A stretch of DNA of 40,788 bases from a bacterium (lineage in GTDB: Bacteria; Patescibacteriota; Andersenbacteria; UBA10190): the NCBI GenBank assembly GCA_002686445.1, contig NZCO01000017.1, positions 1 through 40,788 of the forward strand, written 5' to 3'. A program made the translations under genes and the position numbers. Below the pieces are notes generated by a model. The model worked only from the letters and a program-made list of their open reading frames with translations, was not told where the DNA came from and made no database searches. Below are positions 4,231-31,888 of this stretch, in pieces. How positions within the stretch are numbered: the stretch's first letter is position 1; every line of letters starts with the position of its first letter.

Positions 4231-4619
4231 GGTTTAAACCATACAAGCAGAAACGCCACCAGGGCAAGTAGCGCACTAACCACACACCACATACACCACG
4301 CGTCGATGACAAATGCCTCTATGTACGTGAGTCCAGCCGATACCACTAAACCAGCGGCGGTTAGGAGCGATAAGGGCCAACGAATCCATGACCGATTAAC
4401 TGGCGTTGCCATCAATGCTGACACCGCGAGTAGTAGGTAGAACAACAGCCCATAGGCAGGAGTTGGAACACCGAGAAACGAAGCGTACTGGCTGGCGCGT
4501 ACCGTGTCGCAGCCATGGCCCACCCCACACTCAATTGGTCCGCCCGAGGTGTACGTGACAAACAGGTAGCCGGACACGAGCAACCCAAGCACGGCGATTA
4601 AAAAAAGTGGGATGCGCAT
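4221..4619 (-). CDS. vitamin K epoxide reductase (VKOR) family protein
   Basis: Four predicted TM segments, loop cysteine pair CGVGHGC and CMWC (CxxC) in the last helix. Overlaps the downstream dsbA-like gene by 10 nt. Confidence 0.8.
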   Translation of the reverse strand: MRIPLFLIAVLGLLVSGYLFVTYTSGGPIECGVGHGCDTVRASQYASFLGVPTPAYGLLFYLLLAVSALMATPVNRSWIRWPLSLLTAAGLVVSAGLTYIEAFVIDAWCMWCVVSALLALVAFLLVWFKPWK

Positions 4620-7391: not shown

Positions 7392-8012
7392 TTAGCTCGC
7401 GCGTAGGACACAACGTGCCGGGGCGCCATCGAGATCCCACTTAATGGGCAAACACAGCAGTTCATACGTACCAGCGTCCACCTCCGCCAGCCACAGCCCT
7501 TCAACGATAACGACGTTATTATCAATAAGTATTTCGTGCACCTGGTTTTTCGTGCCCCGTTTGCGAATCGAGAGGGCGTCCAAGCCAACTAACTGCAAGC
7601 CCCGAGCCACGCACTCTTCGGCAGCAGAATCATCCAAAGCCACGAAATCATCGTCGAATGTGTTCGGATCCCTGTTAGAGTTGCGTGTCTTAAAGAGAAC
7701 GCGAGACTGAGTCGTCTCGGGAATGTCAGCAGCGGTAATAACCGATTCCAGATGAGACACGTCAACCACTTCACACTGCCCGTTCATCTGCGATAGGTCG
7801 TAGGTCAACGCCCCGGGCCCATCGGCATGAATATGGTGCGGTGTATCGATGTGCGTACCGGTGTGGGTGCCCAGCGTAACTTTGGACAGTGTGTTTTTTC
7901 CCTCGCCTGCTTCTTGCAACAACTCAAACTCAACGGCAGCGTTATTAGGATAGATAGCCATGTCAGGACTGATCTCCCGAGTAATATCTAGCAGTTGTGT
8001 ATCGTCATTCAC
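7392..8012 (-). CDS. cyclase family protein (kynurenine formamidase-like)
   Basis: HTGTHIDTPHH metal-binding motif. 206 aa. GTG start. Confidence 0.75.
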   Translation of the reverse strand: MNDDTQLLDITREISPDMAIYPNNAAVEFELLQEAGEGKNTLSKVTLGTHTGTHIDTPHHIHADGPGALTYDLSQMNGQCEVVDVSHLESVITAADIPETTQSRVLFKTRNSNRDPNTFDDDFVALDDSAAEECVARGLQLVGLDALSIRKRGTKNQVHEILIDNNVVIVEGLWLAEVDAGTYELLCLPIKWDLDGAPARCVLRAS

Positions 8013-8020
8013 ACCTTAAT

Positions 8021-8029
8021 TGGTACACT
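8021..8029 (+). promoter_or_regulatory. extended -10 (TGGTACACT) for a leaderless zwf mRNA
   Basis: TGnTAnnnT lies exactly 6 nt upstream of ATG 8036, with no SD. Confidence 0.5.
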
Positions 8030-8035
8030 AGTACG

Positions 8036-9536: not shown

Positions 9537-10373
9537 ATGGACGTATCTACAATACGCCAGCTGCACAGTTTACCCGCGCTCGTCGCCAGTGTCCTCCGCT
9601 TCGCGCAAGAGCGGTACCTACAAGGCGTACAGTTGTGGTCGCCCGTACTCGGGGAACCAGTCATGTCGCAAGACATGATTTATAAGGCGTCGACCGGCCA
9701 GTTCGTTATCAGGAGAAACCACTTTCCTGATGATATGGACATCAAGTACGTGGTGCTGTCTAGGAGAGCCCAAGAAGGAGACGGTCGCTTATCGATCGAA
9801 CTCACTAAGCTCGATTTCAATCTGCTTGCCAGCACATTAGCTGGCGCGCCGGTTTCCTATGAGGGTCTCACTCTGGTGGGCCGAGAGCTGCGCTACCAAG
9901 GCACACCAATACTGAAAACTCGGACCCAGTCGCACTTTGCGCAAGCTGATGTCTGGCCACGAACGTTGATATGGACCGTGCAACCGCTTAGTTCTATGGA
10001 CATTGCGCCCATAGCCCAAGTGCTCGATCTCATCTATGGCTTCAACTGCTTTGATGAACACGCTCGACCGCGGCTAGCGGACCTCGAGATGCGCCGCCAG
10101 CTTGCTAGCATGTCGAGTGCACCGCCTGCGGCGGCGGGAATTGAGCAACGGCAAGTGCAGCAGCAAGTAATGTCAATGCAACTTAAGATGGCACTGGAAC
10201 AACTTGCGGTTCAAGAGCAACGGCCGGTGATGATAATGCGGCAGCGAATGGAGGTTCGTATTCTGGCGCGGCGCGTGCAGCATAGCCAAGTTCTACGGAT
10301 GTCGCAGGCTGAGCTCGCCGCATATGTGCGGCGCGTGGCCACTTCAAACCCAGTCGTAGCAGTACAGCCATAA
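9537..10373 (+). CDS. hypothetical protein with Gln-rich C-terminal tail
   Basis: Has its own promoter, a strong SD and an intrinsic terminator. I recognised no family motif in residues 1-190. The C-terminal ~80 aa are Q/L/M/R-rich. Confidence 0.75.
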   Translation: MDVSTIRQLHSLPALVASVLRFAQERYLQGVQLWSPVLGEPVMSQDMIYKASTGQFVIRRNHFPDDMDIKYVVLSRRAQEGDGRLSIELTKLDFNLLASTLAGAPVSYEGLTLVGRELRYQGTPILKTRTQSHFAQADVWPRTLIWTVQPLSSMDIAPIAQVLDLIYGFNCFDEHARPRLADLEMRRQLASMSSAPPAAAGIEQRQVQQQVMSMQLKMALEQLAVQEQRPVMIMRQRMEVRILARRVQHSQVLRMSQAELAAYVRRVATSNPVVAVQP

Positions 10374-10634: not shown

Positions 10635-11534
10635 CTACTTCTTCTTCACCTTATGACCGCCAAATTCATTCCGCAGTGCCGCAATCAACTTGGCAGAAAA
10701 TGTATCAGGTAAACGAGATTCGAAACGCGCATACAGTGCCGCCGTGTTTACCGAGAACGGCACGGCATTATCAACTGCTTCCTTCACAGACCATCGTCCC
10801 TCGCCGTTGTCATCCACATAGCCAGCGATGTCAGCCAGGTCGCTATCATTCGCTAATGCCTTATGAGCTAGCTCAATTAAGAAAGAGCGAATGATAGTCC
10901 CCTTGCTCCACAACCTCGCAATTTTTTCCAAGTCTAAGTCGTCGTAGGACCCGTTCTTCAGTAGGTCAAAACCTTCACCAATGGATTGCATCATCCCGTA
11001 TTCAACTGCATTGTGAATCATCTTCACGTAGTGACCGGCGCCAACCGGGCCCACGTGCGCGAAGGCATCATCCGCCGCCAGGTCATCGAGCAAAGCTTGT
11101 ACCGAAGCGAGGTGTTTTGCATCAGCTCCAACCATTAAGGCGTAGCCAATTTCCTCTCCCGCAACTCCACCGCTGACTCCAACATCAATAAAGTGAATAT
11201 CACGCTTGCCTAACCGCTGCGCGTTTTGTACTGAGTGCCGGAACTGCGAATTACCACCGTCGATAACCGTATCGCCCGGATCGAGCTGCTTCGCCAGCTC
11301 TTGTATCGTTTCGGAGACAGCATCTCCAGCCGGTACCATCAACCAAATAACCCGTGGTGCGGTCAACGATTGTACCAACTCCGCCACCGAGTCCGCTACA
11401 GTACCTCCCGCATCGGTAATGACGGCTCCAGCATCTGGGCCTGGATCGTGCGCCACGACCTCGTGGTTGGCCTTTTGCCAACGTCGCAGAATGCCGCCGC
11501 CCATCTTGCCTACGCCAATGAGTCCTACTTGCAT
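10635..11534 (-). CDS. gnd: 6-phosphogluconate dehydrogenase, short (~300 aa) decarboxylating type
   Basis: GLIGVGKMGGG NAD(P) motif and a 6PGDH C-terminal-like helical domain (IHNAVEYGMMQSIGEGF). Confidence 0.85.
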   Translation of the reverse strand: MQVGLIGVGKMGGGILRRWQKANHEVVAHDPGPDAGAVITDAGGTVADSVAELVQSLTAPRVIWLMVPAGDAVSETIQELAKQLDPGDTVIDGGNSQFRHSVQNAQRLGKRDIHFIDVGVSGGVAGEEIGYALMVGADAKHLASVQALLDDLAADDAFAHVGPVGAGHYVKMIHNAVEYGMMQSIGEGFDLLKNGSYDDLDLEKIARLWSKGTIIRSFLIELAHKALANDSDLADIAGYVDDNGEGRWSVKEAVDNAVPFSVNTAALYARFESRLPDTFSAKLIAALRNEFGGHKVKKK

Positions 11535-13647: not shown

Positions 13648-14178
13648 CTACTCAACGACGATCGTACAACCGTTGCTTGCCGCTAAGTGGTCGTGACACT
13701 TCCAAGTGCCAACTTTCGTAAATGTGTGTGAGTACTCTTCTCCGGTCTCAAGCCCCCGCTTACTGTCAAAGCCAGGCAGCACAGTATGAGTAGGATGAAC
13801 GTCTGAAGCAGGCCAATGCTTACCCTGACCATCGTTGGTGAACTTCACCGTATCGCCGACAGCGATGGTGATAATGCCTGGCGTAAAGCCGGTCTCATCA
13901 ACCGCTACGTCCACCGTGTTGCCAGTTGCCGGTGCTGTTTCAGTAGTAGCTTCTTCTTCTGTAGCCGCTACCTCATCACTATCTTGCGGCACATCTGTCG
14001 GTGCCAGCTGAATGAACTGTCCTCCGTTCCCACCACTAGTCGTATCAGTTAGTTGTTGGTTTGGATCAGGCGTCGTTAATGGCGCGGTTTCTTCTTCTGA
14101 ATTATCTCCCACTACCACCCAGGCAATAACCAGGATAACGACGATGATGACGATAGTTCCGACCAATCCAAACTTCAT
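13648..14178 (-). CDS. membrane-anchored cupredoxin-like domain protein
   Basis: N-terminal TM, a low-complexity acidic/Thr linker, then TVKFTNDGQGKHWP...HPTH...GTWKCHDH, a plastocyanin/amicyanin-like pattern. Start set at ATG 14178 (MKFGLVG) rather than TTG 14199. Confidence 0.65.
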   Translation of the reverse strand: MKFGLVGTIVIIVVILVIAWVVVGDNSEEETAPLTTPDPNQQLTDTTSGGNGGQFIQLAPTDVPQDSDEVAATEEEATTETAPATGNTVDVAVDETGFTPGIITIAVGDTVKFTNDGQGKHWPASDVHPTHTVLPGFDSKRGLETGEEYSHTFTKVGTWKCHDHLAASNGCTIVVE

Positions 14179-14182
14179 ACGT

Positions 14183-14938
14183 TTAGAGTAGCTGATCAAT
14201 AGTTGCTTTCACAGAGGCGTATGGTTGTGCCCCGTTAATCGGCAATTTCTCGCCATTAGGGCCAATTACGACCGAGTAAGGCGTACCGCGGCCACCTGCA
14301 GCCTGCGCATCGGCTATATCAGCAGCCACCTTGTCTGCATACTTGCCTGACTCAACACATGATGTAAATTGCGCGATATTCGTCACCCCAGCTTGCTGCG
14401 CGTAGGTCGGTAATAGGCTCAAATCTAAGCCATCGTTAGAGGTCGTTTCTTCATACACAATGTCAGTGAACTCCCAGAACCGGCCCTGTTCGCTAGCACA
14501 TTCGGAAGCTTCAGCCTCGGCGTTTGCCTGACGGTGAAGCTGCTCCAGCGGGAAGTGTCGATACACCCACTGCACGTCATTCGGGTATTCCGTTATCAAT
14601 TGCTGCATCGTTGGGTGGAAGCGCTTACAAAACGGACATTCATAGTCTGAGTACTCAATAACGGTTATTTTGGCATTCGCAGCACCGCGCACATGATCGT
14701 CGCTTGAGACAGGACGAATATCCCCAATAGAGGGAGCAGTCGGAGCTGCCGCAGGGGCCTGCTCACCTTCAAGGGCCACAGCCGTAGTCGGCGCTGAGCC
14801 AGTGCCATTACCAAAGTAAACGGCTAGGGCAATAAGTGCGCCGGCAATCACAATTGCCAATGGCACGCCCATTTGGTTTTGATTCGAGCTGCCCACGCCA
14901 GAGGGTGTCGAAGTTGTAGTTGTAGTTGGTTCAGTCAT
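14183..14938 (-). CDS. membrane-anchored DsbA-family thiol:disulfide oxidoreductase
   Basis: N-terminal TM, YECPFC active site and FWEFTDIVY helical insert. 251 aa. Confidence 0.85.
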   Translation of the reverse strand: MTEPTTTTTSTPSGVGSSNQNQMGVPLAIVIAGALIALAVYFGNGTGSAPTTAVALEGEQAPAAAPTAPSIGDIRPVSSDDHVRGAANAKITVIEYSDYECPFCKRFHPTMQQLITEYPNDVQWVYRHFPLEQLHRQANAEAEASECASEQGRFWEFTDIVYEETTSNDGLDLSLLPTYAQQAGVTNIAQFTSCVESGKYADKVAADIADAQAAGGRGTPYSVVIGPNGEKLPINGAQPYASVKATIDQLL

Positions 14939-14960
14939 CGGTTAAGTATTTACTTAATCA
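14939..14960 (-). promoter_or_regulatory. TTAAG-N6-CTTAA palindromic operator candidate overlapping the dsbA promoter
   Basis: Minus strand reads TGATTAAG-TAAATA-CTTAACCG immediately before ATG 14938. TTGACC -35 candidate at 14969..14974. Confidence 0.5.
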
Positions 14961-14970
14961 TCAATCCAGG

Positions 14971-17900
14971 TCAAGTGCCGCCACAATACTCACAATTATC
15001 ACACCGGGGGGCGTCCAAAAACGCCATTTTTTTGATATCTGCCCACACTTCCTTGATCTGCTCTGAGAGCTCATCGACTTGCGCGCTATCGATCTCAATT
15101 TTGAGCTTCACAAATTTGCCGGTGCGCTTACTAGCCTGCACGAAATCGATCTCGCCACTGACCATCGTGTGGTTAAACCTCTTCGACGTATCCGCTAGCA
15201 ACTGGTAGAACACTAGCTGACGATGATACGCACCTCCGGGCTTGAGCGCCGCTGACTTGCCATCAGGGTTGCCGGTCTTGTAGTCGACCACGTTCACGAG
15301 CTTGGCCTTGGCGTCGACCTCCTCAACTTTGTCGAGCATGCCGGTCAATGGGAGATCAGCCAGTCGCACCCCGTGCGACGCAAAGTTCAGCTCACGTGAT
15401 AGGGCTGGAACAAATGATTTTTGATACCGATCAAAGTAGGCGCCGAGGACATCTTTGCCCAGCACCACACTTGCTTTGCGGTCGGCTGGAATAAGTACCT
15501 CTCGATCCAGATGAGAGTTGAAGCGATCAACCAGATATTTTTTACTGCGCGCGTCCTGCCCCAACAAATCAAACAGCGCGGCATGCACGGCTGTACCAAA
15601 TGACATGTGCTTGGTCTTAGCGGCCGGGGCACGTAAGAGATTCCGGTAATACCACAGACGCGGACACTCTAAGTAGTTGTTGAGATGCGTCACACTCATG
15701 GTGTAGTGCTCCAGGCGTAGCTTGAGATACTCCTTTAGTTCTCGCTCGTGATCGGGCGTAAATACATGTAACTGCGCTAAGGTCTCGCGCTGCTGCGTAT
15801 CAATAGAGGTCGCGATAGTTTCCACCGGCACAGCGTCGGGCAGTTCAGCCACGAACCGTGAGGCAACAAAAGGACGACCCGAAGCCGAGGTAGTGCTGTG
15901 CGTAATACGCACCCGCTCTTTAGCGCGGGTCAGCGCCACATAAAAGAGTCGACGCTCATCCTCATCGGGGTCATAATCACTGGCTTGGTGTTGGATCAAA
16001 CCGTGGGGCAGACGGACCAGCGATCGTTCCCGCATGTTCCCCCAGCGCCCGTGCATGGCGTGCAGTACAAAGACATGCTGCCACTCCAGGCCCTTCGCCT
16101 TGTGCGCAGTCATCACCTGCACCGCATCGCGCTGCCGCGGGTGATCACCGTGCAACTCGATACCGTGCTGCGCCAGTAAATCTAAGTGCGCCAAAAAGTC
16201 TGTCAGTGTCGCTGGTGCACCGCCGTGTTTGAGGGTCCGCGCCTCGTTCGTCAGTAGCCTGGCGTAACCGACAACCTCAGCTTGCTTAAGCTCATCACTG
16301 AAATAGGTAATGTATCCAGAGTTATTAACGATTTCCGGCAACAGACGTTCAACCGGTTCGTTGGCCGCAAAGCGTTGCCAGACAAGCAGCTGCTGCACCA
16401 CTTGCGCTGCTCGATCTTCTTTGGTTAAGTCGGCTGCGCGAAGCAAGCTGTAGTTGGTAAGCACCGCCAGTAATGACACACCGCGTTCGCGCGCCACCTG
16501 CTGTGCGCGAGCTAATTGCACCGGTGGCACCGCAAACCACGACCCCTGTAATACCTCCCACAGACGATGGTCATCAACTTGCCCGGCAATGAAGGCTAAG
16601 AGCGTGAGTAGCTGCCGAACCGGTACCGAGGTTAATACATCCGCTGTGGCCAGTAGCTGGGCGGGGATATCGAGACCAGTCAGAGCGGGTAGTATAGCGC
16701 GCGCCTCGTTATTACGGCGTGCCAACACCGCTATCTCACGAGGCGCCACTCCCTTGGCAATGAGCGCCTCAATTTGCTGCGCTACGCCAAAGCGTTCGTC
16801 TTCTTCGGTCGCGTACGACTGCACCGCTATGACGCCTGACGTAGAGCTGCTAGCCTGCGCCTTTAGCTCGCGCGTCACGCCGGCGATATATTCCTCAACG
16901 TTAGAGCTGTTGTGATCAATCACCGCGCTGGCCGCATCCAAAATAGTCTGCGGACTCCGATAGTTCTCCGTCAGACTCACCACGGTCACCTGATCTTGAT
17001 ACCGCTCGTGCAAGGTAAGCAGGTTGGCCAGACTGGCTCCCTGAAATCGATAAATCGACTGGTGGTCGTCGCCCACCACAAACACGTTGGGTTCGTCCAT
17101 AAATTCAGCCAAGCGAAACAACAGATCATTCTGCGCGCCGTTCGTATCCTGGTACTCGTCGACGAGAAAATATTGAAACTGTTCCTGATAGTGCGCTAAG
17201 AGATCATCGTCCGTAGCCAAGCGATCCAGCACCATCAGGATCATGTCCTCGTAATCGTAGCGACCACTTTTGGCTAACGCTTGTTGATACCGCTCAAAGA
17301 CCGTGATTAACTCCTGCTGCTTGGGCAACTGCGATTGCATCTGCGTTAGCCACCGCTTCACCTCGTTCTTATACTGCGTGCACAGTTTCTGCTGCTCTCG
17401 CTTGCCTGTTACTAACTGTAATCCGTCGGTGAGTCGCTGGTAGTGCGCCGCTAGGGTATCGAAGTAGAAATGGAGCCCCGAGTAGCCCGGCTGCAGTGCC
17501 ACAAGCGCCGTATGAAGCTGGGCACACACACCCGGCGTGCGATCCGCGGGCTTGTGTGCCGCAAACGCCGTGATCAGTGGCTCGACATCTTTAACCAGTG
17601 CTTTCGTCTGCCGGATAACATCCTTATATAGTTTCGGCGAAATGTGTTCCTTCTTCAGTTGCTGCACCGCGGAAGAAACATCCCGTAAAAAAAGGTAGGG
17701 GTTGGCAAATGATTTCAGCTTGCTGCCTGCCGGTAGTGCATCGATAAGCTCTTGCCACAACTCGGCTCGCTCGACGTCCGAGAGTACGGTCAGTTCACGC
17801 GCGAAGGAAAACTTATCCGGCCATTCTTGAATTACTTCATTGGCAAATGAATGGAACGTATGCACGCGTACTTGATACGCAGCCTCGCCAATGATGGCCA

Positions 17901-18153
17901 GCAGACGTTGGCGCAGCGCAACAACTCCACTTTCGGTGAACGTTAAACACAGAATATTGTAAGGATCCAGTTGGGTTTGTCGCAAAATGTTAGCCACACG
18001 CATAGCTAACAGCTCCGTCTTGCCTGTCCCCGGTCCCGCCAGCACCATAACCACTCCATCAATAGCATCTACGGCTTCCTTTTGTTTGGCATTGAGCTGC
18101 TTGTATCGACGATCAAAATCAATCGTAACGTCGGTCGAGGCTTGTTTGGTCAT
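14971..18153 (-). CDS. UvrD/PcrA-type SF1 helicase fused to a C-terminal PD-(D/E)XK (Cas4/AddB-like, Cys-cluster) nuclease
   Basis: AGPGTGKT Walker A, VDEYQDTN motif II, and a C-terminal domain with CPRLWYY ... CDNCEYC cysteines. Start moved to ATG 18153 (MTKQASTD...). Confidence 0.85.
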   Translation of the reverse strand: MTKQASTDVTIDFDRRYKQLNAKQKEAVDAIDGVVMVLAGPGTGKTELLAMRVANILRQTQLDPYNILCLTFTESGVVALRQRLLAIIGEAAYQVRVHTFHSFANEVIQEWPDKFSFARELTVLSDVERAELWQELIDALPAGSKLKSFANPYLFLRDVSSAVQQLKKEHISPKLYKDVIRQTKALVKDVEPLITAFAAHKPADRTPGVCAQLHTALVALQPGYSGLHFYFDTLAAHYQRLTDGLQLVTGKREQQKLCTQYKNEVKRWLTQMQSQLPKQQELITVFERYQQALAKSGRYDYEDMILMVLDRLATDDDLLAHYQEQFQYFLVDEYQDTNGAQNDLLFRLAEFMDEPNVFVVGDDHQSIYRFQGASLANLLTLHERYQDQVTVVSLTENYRSPQTILDAASAVIDHNSSNVEEYIAGVTRELKAQASSSTSGVIAVQSYATEEDERFGVAQQIEALIAKGVAPREIAVLARRNNEARAILPALTGLDIPAQLLATADVLTSVPVRQLLTLLAFIAGQVDDHRLWEVLQGSWFAVPPVQLARAQQVARERGVSLLAVLTNYSLLRAADLTKEDRAAQVVQQLLVWQRFAANEPVERLLPEIVNNSGYITYFSDELKQAEVVGYARLLTNEARTLKHGGAPATLTDFLAHLDLLAQHGIELHGDHPRQRDAVQVMTAHKAKGLEWQHVFVLHAMHGRWGNMRERSLVRLPHGLIQHQASDYDPDEDERRLFYVALTRAKERVRITHSTTSASGRPFVASRFVAELPDAVPVETIATSIDTQQRETLAQLHVFTPDHERELKEYLKLRLEHYTMSVTHLNNYLECPRLWYYRNLLRAPAAKTKHMSFGTAVHAALFDLLGQDARSKKYLVDRFNSHLDREVLIPADRKASVVLGKDVLGAYFDRYQKSFVPALSRELNFASHGVRLADLPLTGMLDKVEEVDAKAKLVNVVDYKTGNPDGKSAALKPGGAYHRQLVFYQLLADTSKRFNHTMVSGEIDFVQASKRTGKFVKLKIEIDSAQVDELSEQIKEVWADIKKMAFLDAPRCDNCEYCGGT

Positions 18154-18196
18154 CGTCTCTAGTATCTGGCAGATGACCGGTCCTGGGCAAGGAGCA

Positions 18197-18910
18197 TCAC
18201 GTCGCTGCTTTTTTGCGTACCTGCCACAACCACAACCCAACTAACAATACGGGAATAGTTAATAGCTGCCCGCGCGTGAGGCCTAAAGCACCCGGAAATT
18301 CTTGATACCGCAGATATTCGCTTACCAAACGAAGTATTGCATAGGCAATTAAAAAGACAGCGAGCGCAGTACCTGATCGCCGCCAACGAAGTAGGGCGAT
18401 GTAGGCCACGCCAGCGATCACCAGGTTTTTAGCGATGACAAGCACATGGGCCGTAGTCGACACATATATCTCCTGGTTAATCCAGTTTCCTAACCGACCC
18501 AAGGCCAAACCGAGTGCGACCGGAACCACTATGACGTCGAGCAATTTCCAAAAATCTATTTTGAGTGATCGACAGGCCAACCACAGCGCCATGCCCACGC
18601 CGATAAATCCTCCGTGGGAAGACATGCCGCCGTCGCCTAAGATGAATATTTGAGCCGGATTGCCCCAAAAATATGCTGGCTCATAGAACAGCACATAACC
18701 CAACCGGCCGCCGACAATTACGCCGCCTAGCGCCCAGGTAAATAGTTCTAACCATTGTTCCCGAGTAAGTGTGAGGTCCCGGTAGCGCTGGAGCTTGGGC
18801 AGCACATACCAAGCCAACACGAACGCGGCGATATACAGCAGGGCATACCAGTGCACCGTTAGACTTCCTAATTCAAGCGCCACGGCGCGACTGGGAAAAA
18901 GATTAAGCAT
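18197..18910 (-). CDS. lgt: prolipoprotein diacylglyceryl transferase
   Basis: Motifs GGRLGYVLFYEP, HGGFIG and LGRLGNWINQE. Start moved to ATG 18910 (MLNLFPS...). Confidence 0.9.
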   Translation of the reverse strand: MLNLFPSRAVALELGSLTVHWYALLYIAAFVLAWYVLPKLQRYRDLTLTREQWLELFTWALGGVIVGGRLGYVLFYEPAYFWGNPAQIFILGDGGMSSHGGFIGVGMALWLACRSLKIDFWKLLDVIVVPVALGLALGRLGNWINQEIYVSTTAHVLVIAKNLVIAGVAYIALLRWRRSGTALAVFLIAYAILRLVSEYLRYQEFPGALGLTRGQLLTIPVLLVGLWLWQVRKKAAT

Positions 18911-19959: not shown

Positions 19960-21027
19960 CTACTTCTGTACGTAGAGCATCTGCGTGGGATACGCGAATG
20001 CAATGCCGGCCTCATCGAACGCTGCTTTGAGATTCAGGTTCGTCTGCTGCTGAGCGGTAATAAAGTCATCATATTCCTTGCTGGTTACATAGAAGACAAC
20101 CTCAAAAACGAGTGCCGAGTCGCCAAAAGACTTGAAAAAGGCGCGCTTAAACCGCGTGTTCTCGACTGCTTCAATAGCACCTTTAATTAAATCCGGCACG
20201 CTATTTAGTTTGTCATGCGGTGTCTCATAGGTGACCCCTAGCTCAAACAGACTGCGGCGTTCCTGCAGTCGTCCAAAGTTCTGCACCTCGGCATTGGTTA
20301 GCGCCTGATTGGGCATAACGATTTCTTCACCAGAGACTGACTTAAGTCGCGTAGTCTTAATGCCTATCTTTTGCACCTTGCCCGTCGTAGTGCCTACGCT
20401 AATTAAGTCACCAACTGTAAATGGTTTATCAAAGTAGATCGCTAGTGAGCTGAACAAATCAGCCAGCACATTCTGCAGCGCCAGGGCAATAGCAATACCA
20501 CCAATGCCTAAGCTAGCGATGAGCGAGGTAACATCGACACCGAAGTTAGAGAGTACAAAGAGAAAGCCGACAGACCACAATATCAGACGAGCTACCTGGT
20601 TTACTATCCCCACCGCCGCGTCCGCGTGCCGATCGTTCTGACCAGCCAGGCGTTTACGAACAACGAAGTCGATTAAGATTTGTAACGAGCTAACGAACTG
20701 ATAAGTCAGCACGACCACTAAGATGCCAGTGACTACCGCCGTCCATAAATCATTCAAGGTCAACGTGCGTATCGCCAAATAAAGTGCCAACGCCAAGTAA
20801 AACGAAGGACGTACTTCCGCTACTATACGAATTGCCGTGTCATCAACATCAGTTGCAGTTTTTTTCGCCAGCGCCTCTAATCGTCGCAAAATAATTTTTT
20901 GCACCACTCTAAACAACAGCCAAAGCAGCACAAAATAAATCGCAGCATCAACATACGTCTCTACTGTGTTACCCACTACTACTTGATCCCAAATAGGATT
21001 GCTATTGTTAAGCAATTGCTTAAGCAT
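19960..21027 (-). CDS. mscS: mechanosensitive ion channel (MscS) family protein
   Basis: Multiple N-terminal TM segments. Pore helix and beta-domain pattern ...LALQNVLADLFSSL...FTVGDLISVGTTTGKVQKIGIKTTRL. Confidence 0.85.
   Translation of the reverse strand: MLKQLLNNSNPIWDQVVVGNTVETYVDAAIYFVLLWLLFRVVQKIILRRLEALAKKTATDVDDTAIRIVAEVRPSFYLALALYLAIRTLTLNDLWTAVVTGILVVVLTYQFVSSLQILIDFVVRKRLAGQNDRHADAAVGIVNQVARLILWSVGFLFVLSNFGVDVTSLIASLGIGGIAIALALQNVLADLFSSLAIYFDKPFTVGDLISVGTTTGKVQKIGIKTTRLKSVSGEEIVMPNQALTNAEVQNFGRLQERRSLFELGVTYETPHDKLNSVPDLIKGAIEAVENTRFKRAFFKSFGDSALVFEVVFYVTSKEYDDFITAQQQTNLNLKAAFDEAGIAFAYPTQMLYVQK
21008..21023. promoter_or_regulatory. perfect 16-bp palindrome TTAAGCAATTGCTTAA (TTAAG-N6-CTTAA) in codons 2-7 of mscS
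   Basis: Same half-sites and spacing as the arsR and dsbA sites. Confidence 0.4.
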
Positions 21028-21044
21028 GTATACGTAAGTCCTCC

Positions 21045-21069
21045 TTAAGATTCTCTAGTCTTAATCATA
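21045..21069 (-). promoter_or_regulatory. mscS promoter/operator candidate sharing TATGATTAAG with the arsR promoter
   Basis: Minus strand reads TATGATTAAG-actagagaat-CTTAAGGA. The -10 TATGAT lies about 35 nt upstream of ATG 21027, with AAGGAGG SD in between. Confidence 0.4.
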
Positions 21070-21082
21070 CGTAATAACTCCC

Positions 21083-22432
21083 ATGGCGACCACTACCGAA
21101 TCACCACTTGATAGTTTTTTAACCACACTTGATCGTGTTGGCGCATCTTCCGGCACCCACCCGGATGTCCTCAAATTAATGCGCAAACCCCAGCGTATCC
21201 TTCAAGTTGAATTGCCACTGGAGCGAGACGACGGTAGTCTAGAAATTTTTCATGGCTACCGAGTCCAACACAATGATGTACGTGGTCCATATAAAGGCGG
21301 TGTGCGTTTTCATCCGCACGTGGCCCTCGACGAAGTCACCGCTCTGGCCGCCTGGATGACTCTCAAAACTGCAGTCGTCGACATCCCCTACGGCGGGGCT
21401 AAGGGAGGCATTACTGTTGATCCAACTGATTTAAGCGACCGCGAACTACAGCGCTTGTCGCGCATGTTCGTCGAACGACTCGGCACAGCCATCGGTCCCA
21501 ATCGTGATATCCCTGCTCCCGACGTGAACACCAACGCCCAGATCATGGCCTGGTTCACCGACGAATACAGTCGGCTCCATGGCGAATCCGGCCATGCCGA
21601 GGCCGCCTTTACGGGCAAGCCCGTTGTTTTAGGTGGCAGTCAAGGTCGCGAGTCAGCCACGGGCCGCGGTGGTCTATTCGTGCTGCTGGAATATCTACGC
21701 TCACAAGACATCACCGACCTCACCGGCATGACGATCGCCGTGCAGGGTTTTGGTAATGTAGGCTCGTACTTTGCGTCACTTGCCGACCAGGCTGGCTTTA
21801 CCATCGTGGCTATTTCCGACGCCGAAGGAGGCACCTACCATCCCCAGGGCGCCGACATTTCCCAGATGGTTACGGCGCGGAATCAAGCCGGTAAACTCGA
21901 TACAAACGTGTGCTATCCCAAGCTAGGCGTGGAAGCAGTCGGCGCAACGCAAGATGATTGTGAACCTATCTCCAATGAGGATCTACTCAAGCTTGAGGTT
22001 GATATTCTCGTACCAGCCGCCATCGAAAATCAGATCACGGCCACTAACGTCGCTGACATTAAAGCCAAGTATGTGTTGGAACTGGCTAACGGTCCTACTA
22101 CTCCTGCAGCAGATGAATCCCTGGCGAAACGAAATGTCTCCGTTATTCCAGACATTCTTGCGAATGCCGGTGGCGTTACAGTCAGCTATTTCGAGTGGAC
22201 GCAAAACCTACAGAACTTGTACTGGAGTCAGGACGAAGTGAACACCAAGTTGGAGGCAAAAATGAAGCAGGCAACTAATGAAATCATCGCCATGCAAAAA
22301 GAGGGTGGCGGTACCTTGCGTGAAGCCGCCTACCGCCTCGCCATTAAGCGTATTGAGGCTGCGATGTTATTGCGCGGTTGGGCGCACCCTCGCGGGGAGG
22401 ACAGCGTCGGCCACGTTAACGGAAACACCTAG
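21083..22432 (+). CDS. gdhA: Glu/Leu/Phe/Val dehydrogenase family, probable glutamate dehydrogenase
   Basis: Motifs KGGVRFHP, PYGGAKGG and GFGNVG. 449 aa. Confidence 0.9.
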   Translation: MATTTESPLDSFLTTLDRVGASSGTHPDVLKLMRKPQRILQVELPLERDDGSLEIFHGYRVQHNDVRGPYKGGVRFHPHVALDEVTALAAWMTLKTAVVDIPYGGAKGGITVDPTDLSDRELQRLSRMFVERLGTAIGPNRDIPAPDVNTNAQIMAWFTDEYSRLHGESGHAEAAFTGKPVVLGGSQGRESATGRGGLFVLLEYLRSQDITDLTGMTIAVQGFGNVGSYFASLADQAGFTIVAISDAEGGTYHPQGADISQMVTARNQAGKLDTNVCYPKLGVEAVGATQDDCEPISNEDLLKLEVDILVPAAIENQITATNVADIKAKYVLELANGPTTPAADESLAKRNVSVIPDILANAGGVTVSYFEWTQNLQNLYWSQDEVNTKLEAKMKQATNEIIAMQKEGGGTLREAAYRLAIKRIEAAMLLRGWAHPRGEDSVGHVNGNT

Positions 22433-22613
22433 GACTCCCGCACTCATCCCACTAGAATTCCGGCAAAGCCGAAAATTCGTGGGGCTTCGCCTACCGGTTT
22501 GTACAATTTCTTCGTTGTCGGTTCCGTTGACTTTCTCACCGTATTATTCATACGGCTCGGTCGTCTACTCACCGCCGCCTCGAACTTGGACAAATGCGAG
22601 TGTCCTAGAAGTT

Positions 22614-23459
22614 CTATAGATAATTAAGTAAGGCATCGTAATTGAGGAAGCCAAAGAACTGGAAAAACCAGCTAACCCAGATCCCCAGACTATTGGAGAG
22701 AACCAGGATGCCGAGAAAGATGATAAATACGCCGCCAATGGCCGAGATTATTGGCAATATTTGATTTATCTTTTGCATACGCTGGGAGAAGTAACCGATG
22801 CCACCTGCCAACACTAAGAATGGAACAGCCAGGCCAGCGGAAAATACTGCCAGCAGCAGCGACCCCTGCGCTACGCTGGCGCCGGTTGCCGCCAGCGTTA
22901 AGATCGCACCCAGTACGGGCCCCACACACGGAGTCCAGCCGACCGCGAAGGCTGCCCCGAAAATAGTCGAACTAACTGGATTACCCGGCTTTATCCATTT
23001 GGTAGCTGGCAGACGATGTTCTCGATTCATCCAGTTGGTGGCGCCATACCATTGCGCAAACACTGGCCATGAACCCGATCGCTGGCGAAAACTCGCGTAG
23101 GCTGGCCATCGTGATTCGTAGAAGACCAGCGCCGACTGCAACATGAACAAGCCAAAAAGAATCACAAATCCTCCGCCGATCCTTGATAAGAGCAATCGTG
23201 ACTCAGCGAACAAAGCGCCACCCACCAGGCCAATCAAACTGCCGAGGATAATAAAGACAATACTAAAACCGAGTACATAGAAAACGCCATTCAAGAATAT
23301 TTTGCGGCGAATATTGGCCGCGTCCGCGGAGGTATTAATATCATCAAGCGATACGCCACTGATAAACCCGAGATACCCAGGGACTAGCGGCAAAGTACAA
23401 GGGGCTAAGAACGTGAGCACCCCAGCAATAAAAGAAGGAATAATTAGTGAACCAATCAT
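22614..23459 (-). CDS. ccdA: CcdA/DsbD-family transmembrane thiol-disulfide electron transporter
   Basis: The two membrane-embedded Cys motifs LAPCTLPLVPGY and WTPCVGPVLG, with 6 or more TM segments. Confidence 0.85.
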   Translation of the reverse strand: MIGSLIIPSFIAGVLTFLAPCTLPLVPGYLGFISGVSLDDINTSADAANIRRKIFLNGVFYVLGFSIVFIILGSLIGLVGGALFAESRLLLSRIGGGFVILFGLFMLQSALVFYESRWPAYASFRQRSGSWPVFAQWYGATNWMNREHRLPATKWIKPGNPVSSTIFGAAFAVGWTPCVGPVLGAILTLAATGASVAQGSLLLAVFSAGLAVPFLVLAGGIGYFSQRMQKINQILPIISAIGGVFIIFLGILVLSNSLGIWVSWFFQFFGFLNYDALLNYL

Positions 23460-23644: not shown

Positions 23645-24175
23645 TTAGTTTAGTGCCTCTATACGCTGCCGAATCTCTGCCACGTCCATCGGACCTCGTT
23701 TATGAAAGCCGAGAGAACCGTCGCTATTGAAGAACAACGTCTCCGGCATCGAAAACCCACCGATTTGTGCGTAGAAAGAATCACTCGGATCTAGTTGCCA
23801 GACGAGCTCATCGCGAATGCCAAGCTGATCAATATATTCCGCCGCCACACCAGCAGACTCAGCACGATCAATCGCCACTATGGTCACTGCGTCTCCTAAT
23901 TCTTTTTGGAGCTCCACGAACGCCGGCAGCTCATCGATGCAGAAAGGACACCACGCTGCCCAGGCATTCACGACCAGCGGTTTCCCTCCATATTCGGCTA
24001 GTCCAGCGCTCTGGCCTGCTAGGTCCGTTAACGCGAGCCCAGATATACTGGCGAGCGTCACTGCTCCACCAGTATCCTCGACGCCTGTCCGGTCACTGGA
24101 TTTAGTTGCATACCAGACCGCCGCCACGACAATAATTAGAATTACTACGACGCCTGCAATTGATCCTTTGTTCAT
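23645..24175 (-). CDS. membrane-anchored TlpA/ResA-like thioredoxin (WCPFC)
   Basis: N-terminal TM and the VVNAWAAWCPFC redoxin motif. Confidence 0.85.
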   Translation of the reverse strand: MNKGSIAGVVVILIIVVAAVWYATKSSDRTGVEDTGGAVTLASISGLALTDLAGQSAGLAEYGGKPLVVNAWAAWCPFCIDELPAFVELQKELGDAVTIVAIDRAESAGVAAEYIDQLGIRDELVWQLDPSDSFYAQIGGFSMPETLFFNSDGSLGFHKRGPMDVAEIRQRIEALN

Positions 24176-24762
24176 ATCGAGCCAATTAATGATTTAATAT
24201 CCTGCTCGCTGATATCACCAGGAATAACTTTAGCCACGCTCCCATCTTTATTGATCAAGACGTGGGTATTCGTATAAGAAACACCATACTGCCGCGACGC
24301 TGCGCCATTCGGATCAAGGGCTATCGGGAAACTAATGTTCGCTCGATCCACATAACTAGTCACCACGCTCGTTTTTTCTTGCAGATTGATTCCTATCACC
24401 TCTACCTGATCTCCATATTGATCATACCACTTGCTCAAGCGCGGCATGTCTCGCTGGCAATTGGGACACCACGAAGCCCAAAAATCGATAATAACCGGCT
24501 TCTGGTCCCGATACTGCGCCAGGGAAATAGAGCCTCCGTCGAGGCGTTGCAAGGTAAAATCAGGCGCTAGTTTTACCTCTGGTGACGCGATAACCTCGGC
24601 TACGGCAGCAACCTGTTGTTCAGAGTCCGTAAAACCAACAGAGTCTACACCTGGCACATGCGTTGTTGCCGTTGGCGCTCCGCGATTCCCTAAAATGAAG
24701 AGTAGGGCGATGCCGACCACAAACACGACAACACCTCCTGTAACGAATTTAAAAGTATCCAT
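24172..24762 (-). CDS. membrane-anchored TlpA/ResA-like thioredoxin (WCPNC)
   Basis: N-terminal TM and IIDFWASWCPNC motif. ATGA overlap with the next thioredoxin gene. Confidence 0.85.
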   Translation of the reverse strand: MDTFKFVTGGVVVFVVGIALLFILGNRGAPTATTHVPGVDSVGFTDSEQQVAAVAEVIASPEVKLAPDFTLQRLDGGSISLAQYRDQKPVIIDFWASWCPNCQRDMPRLSKWYDQYGDQVEVIGINLQEKTSVVTSYVDRANISFPIALDPNGAASRQYGVSYTNTHVLINKDGSVAKVIPGDISEQDIKSLIGSI

Positions 24763-24765
24763 AGA

Positions 24766-25833
24766 TCAGTTGTATAGTTCCGTGTCTGGATGCGCTGCCA
24801 TCCAGCTAAACCAGAAGGAGGCAAAGGGATTGAGACGGGTCAACGTTCCGTCCGGCTCACGTTCAAATAGGCGCACCACATCAAGCGCATCATCGTAATT
24901 TGCCACTATAGTTATTCCAGCGAAGGTATCTACTACTTCGCCCTTCGCTTTAACCGCAGGCGGATAATACGCTTTGGCAGCACCGTCTATCACTAATCCC
25001 AATATAAAATCCTTATTCTCCAAACGAGGGTCGCTGGCATTAACAGGACTGATGATCTGGCCATCATCGGTGTAGTAATCTCCGTAAGGATCGAACCCAT
25101 AGCTGCGGACAGCACCGGTGTCGCGCGAGAGCACTTGCCCATCTGGGTGCGCAGCTTTCCATTCACCAAAGCGGATTTGATCCGAGGGCAAGAGCGTCAA
25201 GCGCGTCCCGGTCATCTCCCCGAGGATAGACTCGCCTAATATCTGTGACCACAAGCTATCAGTTTTGCGATCGTACATGACCAAATTGGACTGCCACAGC
25301 TTTCCCGAAGTACCGAATTCCACGCGCTCCCCTTGCACCAGCGGATCAAACACCACTCCCGAAAGACATAACGGGCAATAGGTAATAAGCACCCGCTGAC
25401 CTCCTACGACATCGTTCACTATCTCGTGCCACACCAATATTTGAAACGGGTAAAAACGATCGACCTCATTGTGAGAAAATGCCAGGCCCGGCTCGCGATC
25501 ATCAATAAAGTCAGCTTCAGCTGCGGCTACAAATATTGGATCATCAATTGACGGAATACCGTCCTTCGGCGGACCGCCACCACGAATCTCGTCTAACGGG
25601 ACTAAGTGGCGCACACCATCAGTCACCATGACAGATCGCTGAAGCAGTAGACCCGGTAGCGCGCGCTCGGCATCGGTCACCACTTGTCCGGTTTCTTCGT
25701 TTACCAATATCGTCTCTGCCTCGGATTCCCCCCGCGGTAATACCACGCGATCTCTGGTGAACCACCAGGCCGACACCAATATTACTGCTAGAACTGCCAG
25801 GCCAATCCACAGCGACGTTTTGATGTTTTTCAT
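24766..25833 (-). CDS. DUF3179 domain-containing membrane-anchored protein
   Basis: Motifs DGIPSIDDPIF and HEIVNDVVGGQRVLITYCPLC, characteristic of DUF3179. Start set at ATG 25833 (MKNIKTSLW...), which forms an ATGA overlap with the arsR stop. Confidence 0.75.
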   Translation of the reverse strand: MKNIKTSLWIGLAVLAVILVSAWWFTRDRVVLPRGESEAETILVNEETGQVVTDAERALPGLLLQRSVMVTDGVRHLVPLDEIRGGGPPKDGIPSIDDPIFVAAAEADFIDDREPGLAFSHNEVDRFYPFQILVWHEIVNDVVGGQRVLITYCPLCLSGVVFDPLVQGERVEFGTSGKLWQSNLVMYDRKTDSLWSQILGESILGEMTGTRLTLLPSDQIRFGEWKAAHPDGQVLSRDTGAVRSYGFDPYGDYYTDDGQIISPVNASDPRLENKDFILGLVIDGAAKAYYPPAVKAKGEVVDTFAGITIVANYDDALDVVRLFEREPDGTLTRLNPFASFWFSWMAAHPDTELYN

Positions 25834-26156
25834 CCACTCGCTAGCTGAGCAACGGTTCGCATCACCGTCCGTACGACAGGATCTAGCGCCCGAATACGAT
25901 AACAAATCATCTGCCCTTCCCGTTCCGGCTCAATCAGGCCTGAGCCCTCTAGTAACTTGAGCTGCTGTGAAGCGGCCGGCACAGTGATGCCGAGCACCAT
26001 CGCGATATCAGTAACGCATAAATCTGTATGATCCATCAGTAGTTTGAAGATGCGAAAGCGACTCCGATCGCCCAGTGCACTAAACATCACGGCTATGGTT
26101 GAATCTTCTTGATCAAGCTCGCGCTTGAGTTTAGCGGCTTCTTGTGTAGTTAACAT
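25830..26156 (-). CDS. ArsR/SmtB family transcriptional regulator
   Basis: Winged-HTH region RFRIFKLLMDHTDLCVTDIAMVLGITVPAASQQLKLLEGSGLI. 108 aa. Confidence 0.88.
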   Translation of the reverse strand: MLTTQEAAKLKRELDQEDSTIAVMFSALGDRSRFRIFKLLMDHTDLCVTDIAMVLGITVPAASQQLKLLEGSGLIEPEREGQMICYRIRALDPVVRTVMRTVAQLASG

Positions 26157-26165
26157 ATAATTAAG

Positions 26166-26187
26166 TGATTAAGCAATGACTTAATCA
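26166..26187. promoter_or_regulatory. ArsR operator candidate: 8-6-8 inverted repeat TGATTAAG-N6-CTTAATCA
   Basis: Perfect 8-bp arms. Overlaps the -10 element of the arsR promoter. Confidence 0.55.
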
Positions 26188-26211
26188 TATCAAACTGTAC
26201 ACTACCGTCAA
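26184..26211 (-). promoter_or_regulatory. arsR operon promoter (TTGACG, 16 nt spacer, TATGAT)
   Basis: -35 at 26206..26211 and -10 at 26184..26189 on the minus strand, 27 nt upstream of ATG 26156. Confidence 0.55.
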
Positions 26212-26400
26212 CCCAGATTCATAGAACTGTCCACCGACCAGGCTCCGCTGCGAGACAGCACGCCCTAGAGGTCTGTGGCTCAATGCTTGTCCTGGGAGGT
26301 GTCAAGGTAACAAAAGCCAATTGGGTCCTACTCTCATATCTTGATATATAGGAGCGAAGTGGAAAACCCTCCTCGGAATAAGTTATATACTTAAAGGCAG

Positions 26401-26559
26401 ATGCCAAAGAAGAAAAAACAGCAGACTACCATAGACTGGCAGCAGCAGGTTCCGGACTACGTCTCGTATGGGTTGATCTTGATTGCCGCGATGCTCATGC
26501 TTAACCTCCTCATTCATGAGCTACCAGACCAAATGCTACTGAGCATCATTCGCACTTAG
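26401..26559 (+). CDS. 52-aa Lys-rich single-TM small protein
   Basis: Translates to MPKKKKQQTTIDWQQQVPDYVSYGLILIAAMLMLNLLIHELPDQMLLSIIRT. Followed by a strong terminator. Below the ORF-track cutoff. Confidence 0.4.
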   Translation: MPKKKKQQTTIDWQQQVPDYVSYGLILIAAMLMLNLLIHELPDQMLLSIIRT

Positions 26560-26580
26560 CCCACTCATACCAATCAACAT

Positions 26581-26607
26581 AAACAGACCCCTGTGTGGGG
26601 TCTGTTT
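26581..26607. terminator. bidirectional rho-independent terminator
   Basis: AAACAGACCCC-TGTGT-GGGGTCTGTTT lies between convergent genes. Confidence 0.75.
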
Positions 26608-26625
26608 ATTTCAGTACTACAAGAT

Positions 26626-30949: not shown

Positions 30950-31888
30950 ATGATCAATTACTCTTACTCACGTACCCAATCAAGCCTCCTTGCTGTTGCG
31001 GCGCTACTTATTATCAGCGTGCTAGCTGTGGTTATTACGCAAAAACCTGACCAGGTAGTTCCGACTAATCCCGCTGCTGAAATAACCGTTGCGGCCACGA
31101 TTTTTCCTATTGCTGACATCGCCCGCTCCGTAGGCGGGGAGACGGTCGAGGTTATGCAACTACTGCCCAGCGGTGCCTCACCTCACACTTATGCCCTGAC
31201 CCCCCAACAGCTCGTTGCCCTCCAAGACGTCAAAGTGGTCTTTGCCGTAGGCCACGGACTCGATGAATGGGGCACGCGCGCTGCCGCAAGTACTGATGTA
31301 CCAGTCCAAGTAGTTGACGAGGGCATTACGCTGCGCCCGTTTGGGGCGGCCGGTGAGACACATGGCACGCTCGACCCCCACTACTGGCTAACTATTCCCA
31401 ATGGTCAGCAAATAGCCCGTACTATTGCTGCGCGCTTGCAGGGACTCGACCCAAACAATAGCGCGTTGTACGCAGCCAACTTAGATCGGTATTTGCGAAA
31501 TCTCAATCAAGTTGAGGGCGAACTGCAGGCAGCAGCAACCGCAGCGGCTACAACGAAATTCGTCGCCATTCATGACGCCTGGGGGTATATGGCGGAGCAC
31601 TATGGACTTGAGCTACTTGCTACGTATGAACCGGTCGAGGGGCGCACTCCATCATTAACAGACCTCGTCGCACTGCAAAAGATTGTTGCGGAGAATAACG
31701 TCACGACCTTCTTCACCGAGCCGCAAAAGCGTTCGTCCTCAGCCACTCGTTTCCTGGCTGACGAACTAGGCTTAACCATCGATATCCTGGATCCCCTGGG
31801 CGGCTCAGACGAGTACAGCAGTTATGAAGCACTGATAAGGAATAATATCAACGCTATAGTTAAGCCAGCCGACCTAAACACTATCTAA
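30950..31888 (+). CDS. metal ABC transporter substrate-binding protein (ZnuA/TroA-like)
   Basis: Motifs SGASPHTYALTPQQ, DPHYWL and HDAWGYM. N-terminal anchor. No permease or ATPase gene adjacent. Confidence 0.8.
   Translation: MINYSYSRTQSSLLAVAALLIISVLAVVITQKPDQVVPTNPAAEITVAATIFPIADIARSVGGETVEVMQLLPSGASPHTYALTPQQLVALQDVKVVFAVGHGLDEWGTRAAASTDVPVQVVDEGITLRPFGAAGETHGTLDPHYWLTIPNGQQIARTIAARLQGLDPNNSALYAANLDRYLRNLNQVEGELQAAATAAATTKFVAIHDAWGYMAEHYGLELLATYEPVEGRTPSLTDLVALQKIVAENNVTTFFTEPQKRSSSATRFLADELGLTIDILDPLGGSDEYSSYEALIRNNINAIVKPADLNTI

Follow-up and report, generated by a model that had tools for sequence, protein, structure and literature searches.

The DNA analyzed here (the window, a stretch of 40,788 nucleotides on the metagenomic contig NZCO01000017.1 from a bacterium of the Candidate Phyla Radiation (CPR); Patescibacteriota, Andersenbacteria) carries three copies of a palindrome of the pattern TTAAGNNNNNNCTTAA, that is TTAAG-N6-CTTAA, each located at the 5' end of a gene. 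According to our analysis, this palindrome is very probably the operator of a 108-amino-acid (aa) repressor of the ArsR/SmtB family encoded in the window, which would repress its own operon and that of the thiol:disulfide oxidoreductase gene dsbA. An autoregulated ArsR regulon of thiol-redox genes is well supported by the sequence comparisons described below. We refer to the sites as O1 (arsR), O2 (dsbA) and O3 (mscS or gdh); coordinates are listed in Table 1. A first-pass annotation of the window had posited that ArsR co-regulates arsR, dsbA and mscS. The motif is kept at orthologous arsR and dsbA promoters, and the proposal stands for these two operons, with mscS as a candidate member.

An exact pattern scan found the sites where the first-pass annotation had located them, and their rarity was likewise confirmed, with an expected count of 0.02 per window (earlier estimate about 0.04) and none of 100 dinucleotide-preserving shuffles reaching three. 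Copies with one mismatch are absent from the window, and copies with two mismatches are at chance level (16, or 19 including the three exact ones, vs 13.6 expected). The half-sites are not enriched (39 TTAAG and 35 CTTAA, about 33 expected for each), and among the half-site pairs of the window a spacer of six is the sole spacing that recurs; the excess therefore resides in the dyad and not in base composition.

To characterize the motif outside the window, homologues of the regulator were collected, all of which are metagenomic, the named ones belonging to Berkelbacteria and other Patescibacteria. A scan of 185,579 species-representative genomes contributed 43 further CPR loci at 41-57% identity, and the resulting orthologue set comprises 46 related loci (L numbers) of the same ArsR subfamily, 646 kb in total. 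The three closest relatives (L001-L003, 71-80% protein identity) keep the arrangement TTGAC-N16/17-TAnnAT-TTAAG-N6-CTTAA-N3-YTTAA before arsR; the sequence between these elements has diverged, while motif, -35 box and -10 box are retained. Within 140 nt upstream of arsR, the exact pattern is present in 22 of the 46 loci, and the relaxed form TTAA-N5-T[GA]CTTAA in 27. Elsewhere in the 646 kb the exact pattern occurs nine times, and in 858 kb of unrelated control loci it does not occur at all. The column consensus of 28 arsR promoters reads ATa.-TTAAG.aaTTGCTTAA-.catTTAA, with ATGnTTAAG-N6-CTTAAnCAT as its extended form, and the ideal core is the perfect palindrome TTAAGCAATTGCTTAA, identical to the site at mscS in the window.

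A matrix of 16 columns trained on the relatives only assigned 21-27 bits to the three window sites and 10.9 bits to the next best position, with 0.013 sites of at least 21 bits expected per window in Markov simulations. Applied to loci collected around gdh (L061-L139, 693 kb), it returned matches of at least 17 bits only at five arsR/gdh intergenic sites (L062-L065 and L067), and none in the remaining ~650 kb, which stem from unrelated organisms. That an A+T-rich palindrome recurred here by chance and without function would agree with half-sites at background frequency and with a few accidental exact matches in the relatives, two of them part of terminator hairpins (L027, L039) and one intragenic (L019). 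We consider it extremely unlikely in view of the observed and expected counts, the scores obtained with a matrix from other genomes, the position of all three copies at 5' gene ends, the conservation of the arsR and dsbA sites, and the empty control DNA.

Some relatives carry variant operators. In the Peregrinibacteria-labelled loci L029, L030 and L041 (around 9964-9987) overlapping sites of the form TTTAAGCAATTAAGCAAATYCTTAA were observed, and L016, L026 and L028 show TTTAAG-N4-TnnGCA-N4-TTTAAG-like repeats upstream of arsR. The recognition helix is nearly unchanged in these loci, and a comparison of helix and operator variants for covariation was uninformative since the helix (PAASQQL) is almost invariant.

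The promoter geometry at arsR is that of a self-repressing gene of this family, for which an inverted repeat overlapping its own promoter is a hallmark. A promoter scan detected TTGACG and, after 16 nt, a TG-extended TATGAT, and in agreement with the first-pass annotation the operator overlaps the -10 element (26189-26184), starting on its last base. O1 can be extended to the palindrome TGATTAAG-N6-CTTAATCA (26166-26187), and in the majority of the aligned orthologous arsR promoters TTAAG comes straight after a TAnnnT box. The site presumably covers the arsR transcription start. We posit that a repressor dimer would bind the inverted repeat and, covering the final -10 base together with the transcription start, would thereby block RNA polymerase and autoregulate the operon arsR-DUF3179-tlpA-tlpA-ccdA. 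The gene names given in the first-pass annotation agree with the Pfam matches (HTH_5/ArsR, DUF3179, two AhpC-TSA/Redoxin, DsbD_TM, MscS, DSBA/Thioredoxin_4), and the order arsR-DUF3179 is the same in L001. A further half-site, CTTAA (26161-26165), which the earlier reading had overlooked, follows the arsR palindrome, where the arsR promoter consensus reads nCATTTAA.

Since the motif directly abuts the -10 box in most arsR promoters, RNA polymerase or a sigma factor could conceivably recognize it as a discriminator or start-site element. Alternatively, a protein other than ArsR could bind what would still be a true regulatory site. We regard these readings together as improbable. The register to the -10 box varies, the motif abutting it at arsR, overlapping it at dsbA and lying 5-6 nt downstream of it at the second site of L012 and in L142. 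Dyad symmetry and a size of 16-24 bp fit a dimeric winged-helix protein, and the motif tracks the arsR gene across many CPR lineages. ArsR had also been described as the only transcription factor of the window, and a Pfam scan of 40 of its larger open reading frames (ORFs) indeed gave no other DNA-binding regulator.

Action at the RNA level, with small hairpins affecting mRNA stability or translation initiation, for example by masking the mscS start, is very improbable in our view. The transcript of the arsR site does fold as a 9-bp hairpin (-7.8 kcal/mol, z -3.7) and the mscS site lies right after the AUG, but the dsbA (-2.4 kcal/mol, z -1.6) and mscS (-6.5 kcal/mol, z -1.2) sites fold no better than shuffled sequences, and a leaderless dsbA transcript would omit most of its site. 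The relatives conserve the half-sites and an asymmetric TTG, while the spacers are not self-complementary, which is the pattern of protein contacts and not of covariation. No Rfam family was detected in the window at gathering thresholds.

At dsbA, the first-pass annotation had placed the site directly upstream of the ATG, and it is found 4-19 nt 5' of the start codon at 14938. The predicted promoter consists of TTGACC, a spacing of 18 nt and the -10 box AATACT at 14945-14950 (or TAAATA). The AddA-like helicase-nuclease gene that lies upstream (14971-18240) reaches into this promoter, its stop codon and the -35 box overlapping. The -10 box overlaps the palindrome itself (spacer and proximal arm). 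The gene appears to be leaderless, as it lacks a Shine-Dalgarno sequence and its ATG follows 7 nt after the predicted -10 box. Binding at O2 would occlude the -10 box and so repress dsbA together with the following 183-aa, weakly cupredoxin-like gene, which is probably co-transcribed with it; homologues of the latter in L142 and L143 likewise gave weak or faint cupredoxin matches. Three DsbA orthologues keep the site. In L140 (84% identity) it is identical, but says little because the flanks are conserved too. In L141 (75%) all 16 bases and the TTGACC box are kept, while the 11 bases between them differ. In L142 (71%) the site TTAACCACTTACTTAA (17.4 bits) stands behind a different -10 box, 36 nt from the ATG.

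The gene content associated with the motif in the relatives is coherent as well. The majority of loci have arsR as the first gene of an operon that also comprises glutaredoxin-like, DUF3179, TlpA-like and CcdA genes, and where this gene set is split up, a second strong operator lies directly upstream of the detached thiol-redox genes (L012, L033, L034 and L043; Table 1). L038 additionally contains an intergenic exact-pattern match of 15.7 bits.

The target of the third site is less clear-cut. O3, the best-scoring site of the window, occupies codons 2-7 of mscS, as the first-pass annotation had stated, and at the same time lies 59 nt upstream of the ATG of gdh, a gene on the other strand that had been overlooked. 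A later mscS start, which would place the site upstream of the gene, was considered and rejected: the N-termini of orthologues fit the ATG at 21027, and a Shine-Dalgarno sequence, AAGGAGG (21040-21046), is situated 12 nt upstream of it. The 10-mer that had been reported as common to the arsR promoter and the region upstream of mscS was recovered as TATGATTAAG (minus strand, 21060-21069 and 26180-26189), its mscS copy lying 33 nt from the ATG. With the half-site that follows it, it has the look of an arsR-type -10 box plus operator (Table 1), yet with the arms 4 bp too far apart, and might represent a candidate mscS promoter or a decayed operator. On the plus strand, a 9-mer, CTTAATCAT, occurs at all three loci (14953-14961, from 21060, and 26180-26188) and extends the half-site to ATGATTAAG.

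Gene order in the relatives bears on the target of O3. In L143 (1-1512) and L144 (1666-3527), mscS follows ccdA after 14-20 nt with no gdh between them, so that mscS probably rides on the ArsR-controlled transcript there. In the window (21028-23459), L001 and L061, gdh is placed between ccdA and mscS in opposite orientation. Because mscS directly follows ccdA in L143 and L144, gdh appears to have been inserted or relocated in the lineage of the window, again with an operator about 60 nt upstream. In eight further loci (L012, L022, L025, L062-L065 and L067) gdh is the divergent neighbor of arsR and the two share the operator region; in five of them the operator precedes the gdh ATG by 61-64 nt, compared with 59 nt in the window. 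With an operator of its own, mscS would regain ArsR control after the insertion. The third site probably brings mscS, gdh or both under the same control, acting on mscS as a roadblock that the polymerase would meet 30-50 nt after the start of the transcript, on gdh as an upstream site, or possibly in both ways.

That O3 controls gdh and not mscS, its overlap with mscS codons 2-7 being a by-product of the relocation of gdh with its operator, is a serious possibility, if somewhat short of an even one. It would fit with the divergent gdh-arsR arrangement and its nearly constant spacing, with the gene order of L143 and L144, with mscS orthologues elsewhere that carry no such site, and with the poor conservation of the N-terminal tail to which codons 2-7 belong. 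On the other hand, repression is not classically exerted from some 60 nt before a start codon where no promoter is recognizable over the site; the TATGATTAAG box points to mscS, and the insertion of gdh, having cost mscS its operon-borne control, would give reason for a site of its own. It is also conceivable, although speculative, that gdh brought a duplicate of the arsR promoter with it in the form of O3. Only TATGATTAAG and the 8-mer CGGTAGTG are common to the O3 region and the arsR promoter, with no -35 box in register.

Several observations weigh against an ArsR regulon as outlined here. The link between protein and site draws on their co-occurrence and on the precedent of the family. The third half-site kept in arsR promoters is absent at the dsbA and mscS sites. 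Distant DsbA orthologues (L022 and L025 at 52% identity, L143, L144) do not carry the site, from which we infer that dsbA joined the regulon within the clade of the window. The promoter scan detected no sigma-70-like promoter around O3 on either strand, including 21045-21069. An O3-type site was absent from all six mscS orthologues examined (L143, L144, L004, L012, L022, L025), a comparison limited to distant orthologues since the sequences of the close GDH relatives L001 (86%) and L061 (92%) end inside gdh; the nearest MscS homologues in a database protein search share 54% identity. With both sites missing from distant orthologues, membership of the regulon would be lineage-specific. One strong site, TTAAGGAAGTGCTTAA (L043, 9653-9668, 19.4 bits), is located within an unrelated NYN-domain gene; no thiol-redox gene lies near it. 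Finally, the nearest solved relatives of the regulator are metal sensors, and homology does not favour the idea of a thiol switch.

The regulator itself is a typical member of its family by domain and fold. HTH_5 (PF01022) matched with 36.4 bits against a curated cut-off of 22, and the AlphaFold2 (AF2) model (mean predicted local distance difference test, pLDDT, 92.7) displays helices (H) and strands (E) in the order H4-16, H19-27, H31-42, E46-47, H48-55, H59-72, E75-80, E83-88 and H93-107, in accordance with the ArsR/SmtB arrangement alpha1-alpha2-(beta)-alpha3-alphaR-beta-beta-alpha5. Searches with sequence profiles (E 3e-18 to 4e-13) and with Foldseek (template modelling score, TM, 0.75-0.78 for CadC and 0.72 for CzrA) place it closest to CadC, SmtB and CzrA. 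An alignment of 37 homologues reveals a tight subfamily in which Cys47 (DLCVTD) and Cys85 (GQMICY) are invariant. According to the model, alpha3 is immediately preceded by a short strand or bridge made up of residues 46-47, and Cys85 belongs to the second strand of the wing. In the family fold the short pre-alpha3 strand pairs with the wing, and the two thiols could thus be neighbors.

We posit that repression would be relieved by a signal sensed at Cys47 and Cys85, most likely thiol oxidation or disulfide stress, with a soft metal such as Cu(I) as the alternative. A thiol switch in ArsR is suggested by the conserved cysteines and the company of the gene. Carried further, and put forward only tentatively, a CPR-wide ArsR subfamily would sense disulfide or oxidant stress through a hitherto undescribed cross-strand Cys47-Cys85 site that links the pre-alpha3 strand to the DNA-contacting wing, and one operator would coordinate a reducing arm (CcdA, TlpA-like, DUF3179) with an oxidizing DsbA arm and, in this lineage, with a mechanosensitive channel and/or an NAD(P)-linked glutamate dehydrogenase.

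The same operator and repressor might instead respond to a thiophilic metal (Cu(I), Cd(II), Zn(II)) bound at Cys47 and Cys85, the regulon then serving metal-induced disulfide stress or the maturation of copper proteins. We hold this to be possible without being probable. Apart from the metal sensors among the closest solved relatives, it is favored by the correspondence of Cys47 to the first Cys of the ArsR/CadC alpha3 CVC motif, by the cupredoxin-like gene after dsbA, and by a ZnuA gene that neighbors the locus in relatives. Both known metal-ligand sets are however missing. The alpha3/alpha3N set (CXC plus an N-terminal Cys) is replaced by DLCVTD with a near-invariant Thr49 and no Cys in the N-terminal 40 residues, and His, Asp and Glu are all lacking from alpha5 (residues 93-107, PVVRTVMRTVAQLAS); the one His of the protein, His43, is not conserved. 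Nor does the regulon comprise a metal efflux pump, a metallothionein or an ars gene. It consists of thioredoxin-fold, glutaredoxin and thioredoxin-reductase-like genes, as in RexT-like redox regulons (PMC8960804).

Compared with characterized systems, the protein is an ArsR/SmtB autorepressor by domain, fold and operator architecture that lacks the defining residues of the alpha3/alpha3N, alpha5, RexT and BigR/SqrR classes. The operators of CadC, SmtB and CzrA are of a 12-2-12 type with TGAA-N6-TTCA cores, a 4-6-4 geometry like that of TAAG-N6-CTTA. CadC (Staphylococcus aureus pI258; Listeria Lmo1102), SmtB and CzrA share the small winged-helix fold, and they share with the predicted system a small dimeric repressor acting on an A+T-rich inverted repeat over its own promoter. 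In contrast to them, the window ArsR lacks the alpha3N and alpha5 (Asp/His/His/Glu) ligands and has a family-specific invariant wing Cys, its half-site is different, and thiol-disulfide oxidoreductases take the place of efflux pumps and metallothionein.

What comes nearest in function to the proposed mechanism is RexT, the ArsR-type H2O2 sensor of Nostoc sp. PCC 7120. Built on the ArsR/SmtB scaffold, it represses a gene of the thioredoxin system (thioredoxin A2), which is derepressed when cysteine oxidation releases the protein (PMC8960804). As in RexT, the predicted operators precede thioredoxin-system genes, here of the TlpA-like, CcdA, DsbA, glutaredoxin and thioredoxin-reductase-like types. 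RexT, which is reported to be confined to Nostocales, uses a vicinal Cys40-Cys41 disulfide in alpha3 (PMC8960804), whereas in the window ArsR Cys47 is followed by Val and the second invariant Cys is 38 residues away. The predicted regulon is also larger and mostly extracytoplasmic (CcdA, TlpA-like, DsbA, DUF3179).

BigR, SqrR and HlyU have the same fold, and the idea of a non-metal, cysteine-based sensor is common to them and the window ArsR. They control autoregulated operons through palindromic operators and sense through a Cys pair in alpha2 and alpha5. The window ArsR has no conserved Cys in either segment (31-42 and 93-107), and the regulons of BigR, SqrR and HlyU concern sulfide detoxification or virulence and not CcdA, TlpA and DsbA. 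ArsR of Escherichia coli and R773, the founder of the family, represses itself from a position over its promoter or just upstream of it. Of its ELCVCDL motif, the window ArsR keeps the first Cys (DLCVTD); Thr takes the place of the second As(III)-site Cys in every homologue. Neither the window nor the related loci contain arsB, arsC or acr3 genes. Our literature search retrieved no description of this CPR regulator, of its operator or of any regulation of DUF3179.

While the principle of an autoregulated ArsR repressor with a palindromic operator is textbook knowledge, the value lies in a new subfamily, a possibly new sensing site and the CPR context. CPR bacteria have, to our knowledge, tiny genomes in which transcription factors are very few and hardly any regulation has been defined by experiment, and their cells are mostly anaerobic and host-associated. 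Here a regulator and its predicted operator, kept across many CPR lineages, are defined by comparative evidence, with a coherent regulon content comprising a thiol-disulfide reducing pathway, DsbA, glutaredoxin and thioredoxin-reductase-like genes. A 108-aa protein, a site of 16-24 bp and two invariant cysteines provide a testable handle on the response of CPR bacteria to oxidants or metals. If the proposed sensing through Cys47 and Cys85 is true, this would be among the very few regulons definable in minimal uncultured bacteria. The uncharacterized DUF3179 family moreover gains a physiological context in a putatively ArsR-controlled thiol-redox operon. Selenoproteins with a UxxC/T motif occur within the DUF3179 family (PMC9312934), in keeping with a redox role.

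Table 1. Sites, promoter elements and genes of the predicted ArsR regulon in the window, and second operators in related loci.
Feature	Position	Strand	Basis and remarks
arsR operon promoter, -35 hexamer TTGACG	26206..26211	-	promoter scan; TTGAC kept at same distance in arsR orthologues
arsR promoter, -10 hexamer TATGAT, TG-extended	26184..26189	-	promoter scan; last base is first base of operator
arsR operator O1 TTAAGTCATTGCTTAA	26169..26184	-	exact pattern; 22.5 bits with relatives-only matrix; kept in 22-27 of 46 orthologous loci
third half-site CTTAA	26161..26165	-	3 nt downstream of O1; column consensus of 28 arsR promoters
arsR, 108-aa ArsR/SmtB winged-helix regulator, invariant Cys47 and Cys85	25830..26156	-	Pfam HTH_5, alignment, AF2 model
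DUF3179 gene	24766..25833	-	Pfam PF11376, E 1.7e-83; ATG overlaps arsR stop codon (ATGA)
TlpA-like membrane-anchored thioredoxin-fold protein (AhpC-TSA/Redoxin)	24172..24762	-	Pfam
second Redoxin/AhpC-TSA thioredoxin-fold protein	23645..24175	-	Pfam
CcdA/DsbD-type transmembrane thiol-disulfide electron transporter	22614..23459	-	Pfam DsbD_TM; last gene of arsR operon
gdh, Glu/Leu/Phe/Val dehydrogenase family	21083..22432	+	Pfam ELFV_dehydrog; divergent from mscS, convergent with ccdA
TATGATTAAG-N10-CTTAAGG	21045..21069	-	-10-like box plus half-site; 10/10 identical to arsR promoter
operator O3 TTAAGCAATTGCTTAA	21008..21023	.	perfect palindrome, clade consensus; 27.5 bits, best score of window
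mscS, small-conductance mechanosensitive channel	19960..21027	-	Pfam MS_channel domains; start by N-terminal alignment
dsbA promoter, -35 hexamer TTGACC	14969..14974	-	promoter scan; kept in L140 and L141
dsbA operator O2 TTAAGTAAATACTTAA	14942..14957	-	exact pattern; 21.3 bits; kept in L140, L141, L142
DsbA-like thiol:disulfide oxidoreductase gene	14183..14938	-	Pfam Thioredoxin_4 and DSBA
183-aa gene overlapping dsbA end, weakly cupredoxin-like	13648..14199	-	Pfam Cupredoxin_1, E 0.0075, below cut-off
second operator	L012, 9781		20.6 bits; before DUF3179-tlpA-ccdA
second operator	L033, 4434		22.1 bits; before glutaredoxin and FMN reductase
second operator	L034, 2306		24.4 bits; before TlpA-like redoxin and thioredoxin-reductase-like gene
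second operator	L043, 3548		24.3 bits; before phosphatase-arsR-ccdA

In the region upstream of the arsR promoter (26190-26625), about 200 nt contain neither a credible ORF nor an Rfam match. Beyond them lie a 52-aa hydrophobic ORF (26402-26560, plus strand) and, judged by eye only, a G+C-rich inverted repeat followed by a T-run near 26579-26610. In at least ten relatives (L006, L010, L023, L024, L033, L037, L039, L040, L042 and L044), a DnaA-box-like motif, TTATCCACA, is found just 5' of the arsR promoter, within about 90 nt. TATCCACA has 41 matches in the 646 kb of CPR loci, of which 21 are intergenic (intergenic share of the DNA ~12%). The window has no copy; in some CPR lineages the motif may be associated with promoters.

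The window furthermore encodes a second DsbA-like protein (3586-4230) and a VKOR protein (4221-4619), which form an oxidative pair with no operator nearby; the arsR-headed gene cluster includes a homologue of this second DsbA-like gene in L022 and homologues of both in L025. A gene for a ZnuA-type metal-binding lipoprotein (30950-31888) has no operator near it either, and its homologues adjoin gdh-arsR in L012, L022 and L025. Genes for glucose-6-phosphate dehydrogenase (7997-9457) and 6-phosphogluconate dehydrogenase (10635-11534) are situated close to the redox loci and, together with gdh, are possible sources of NADPH.

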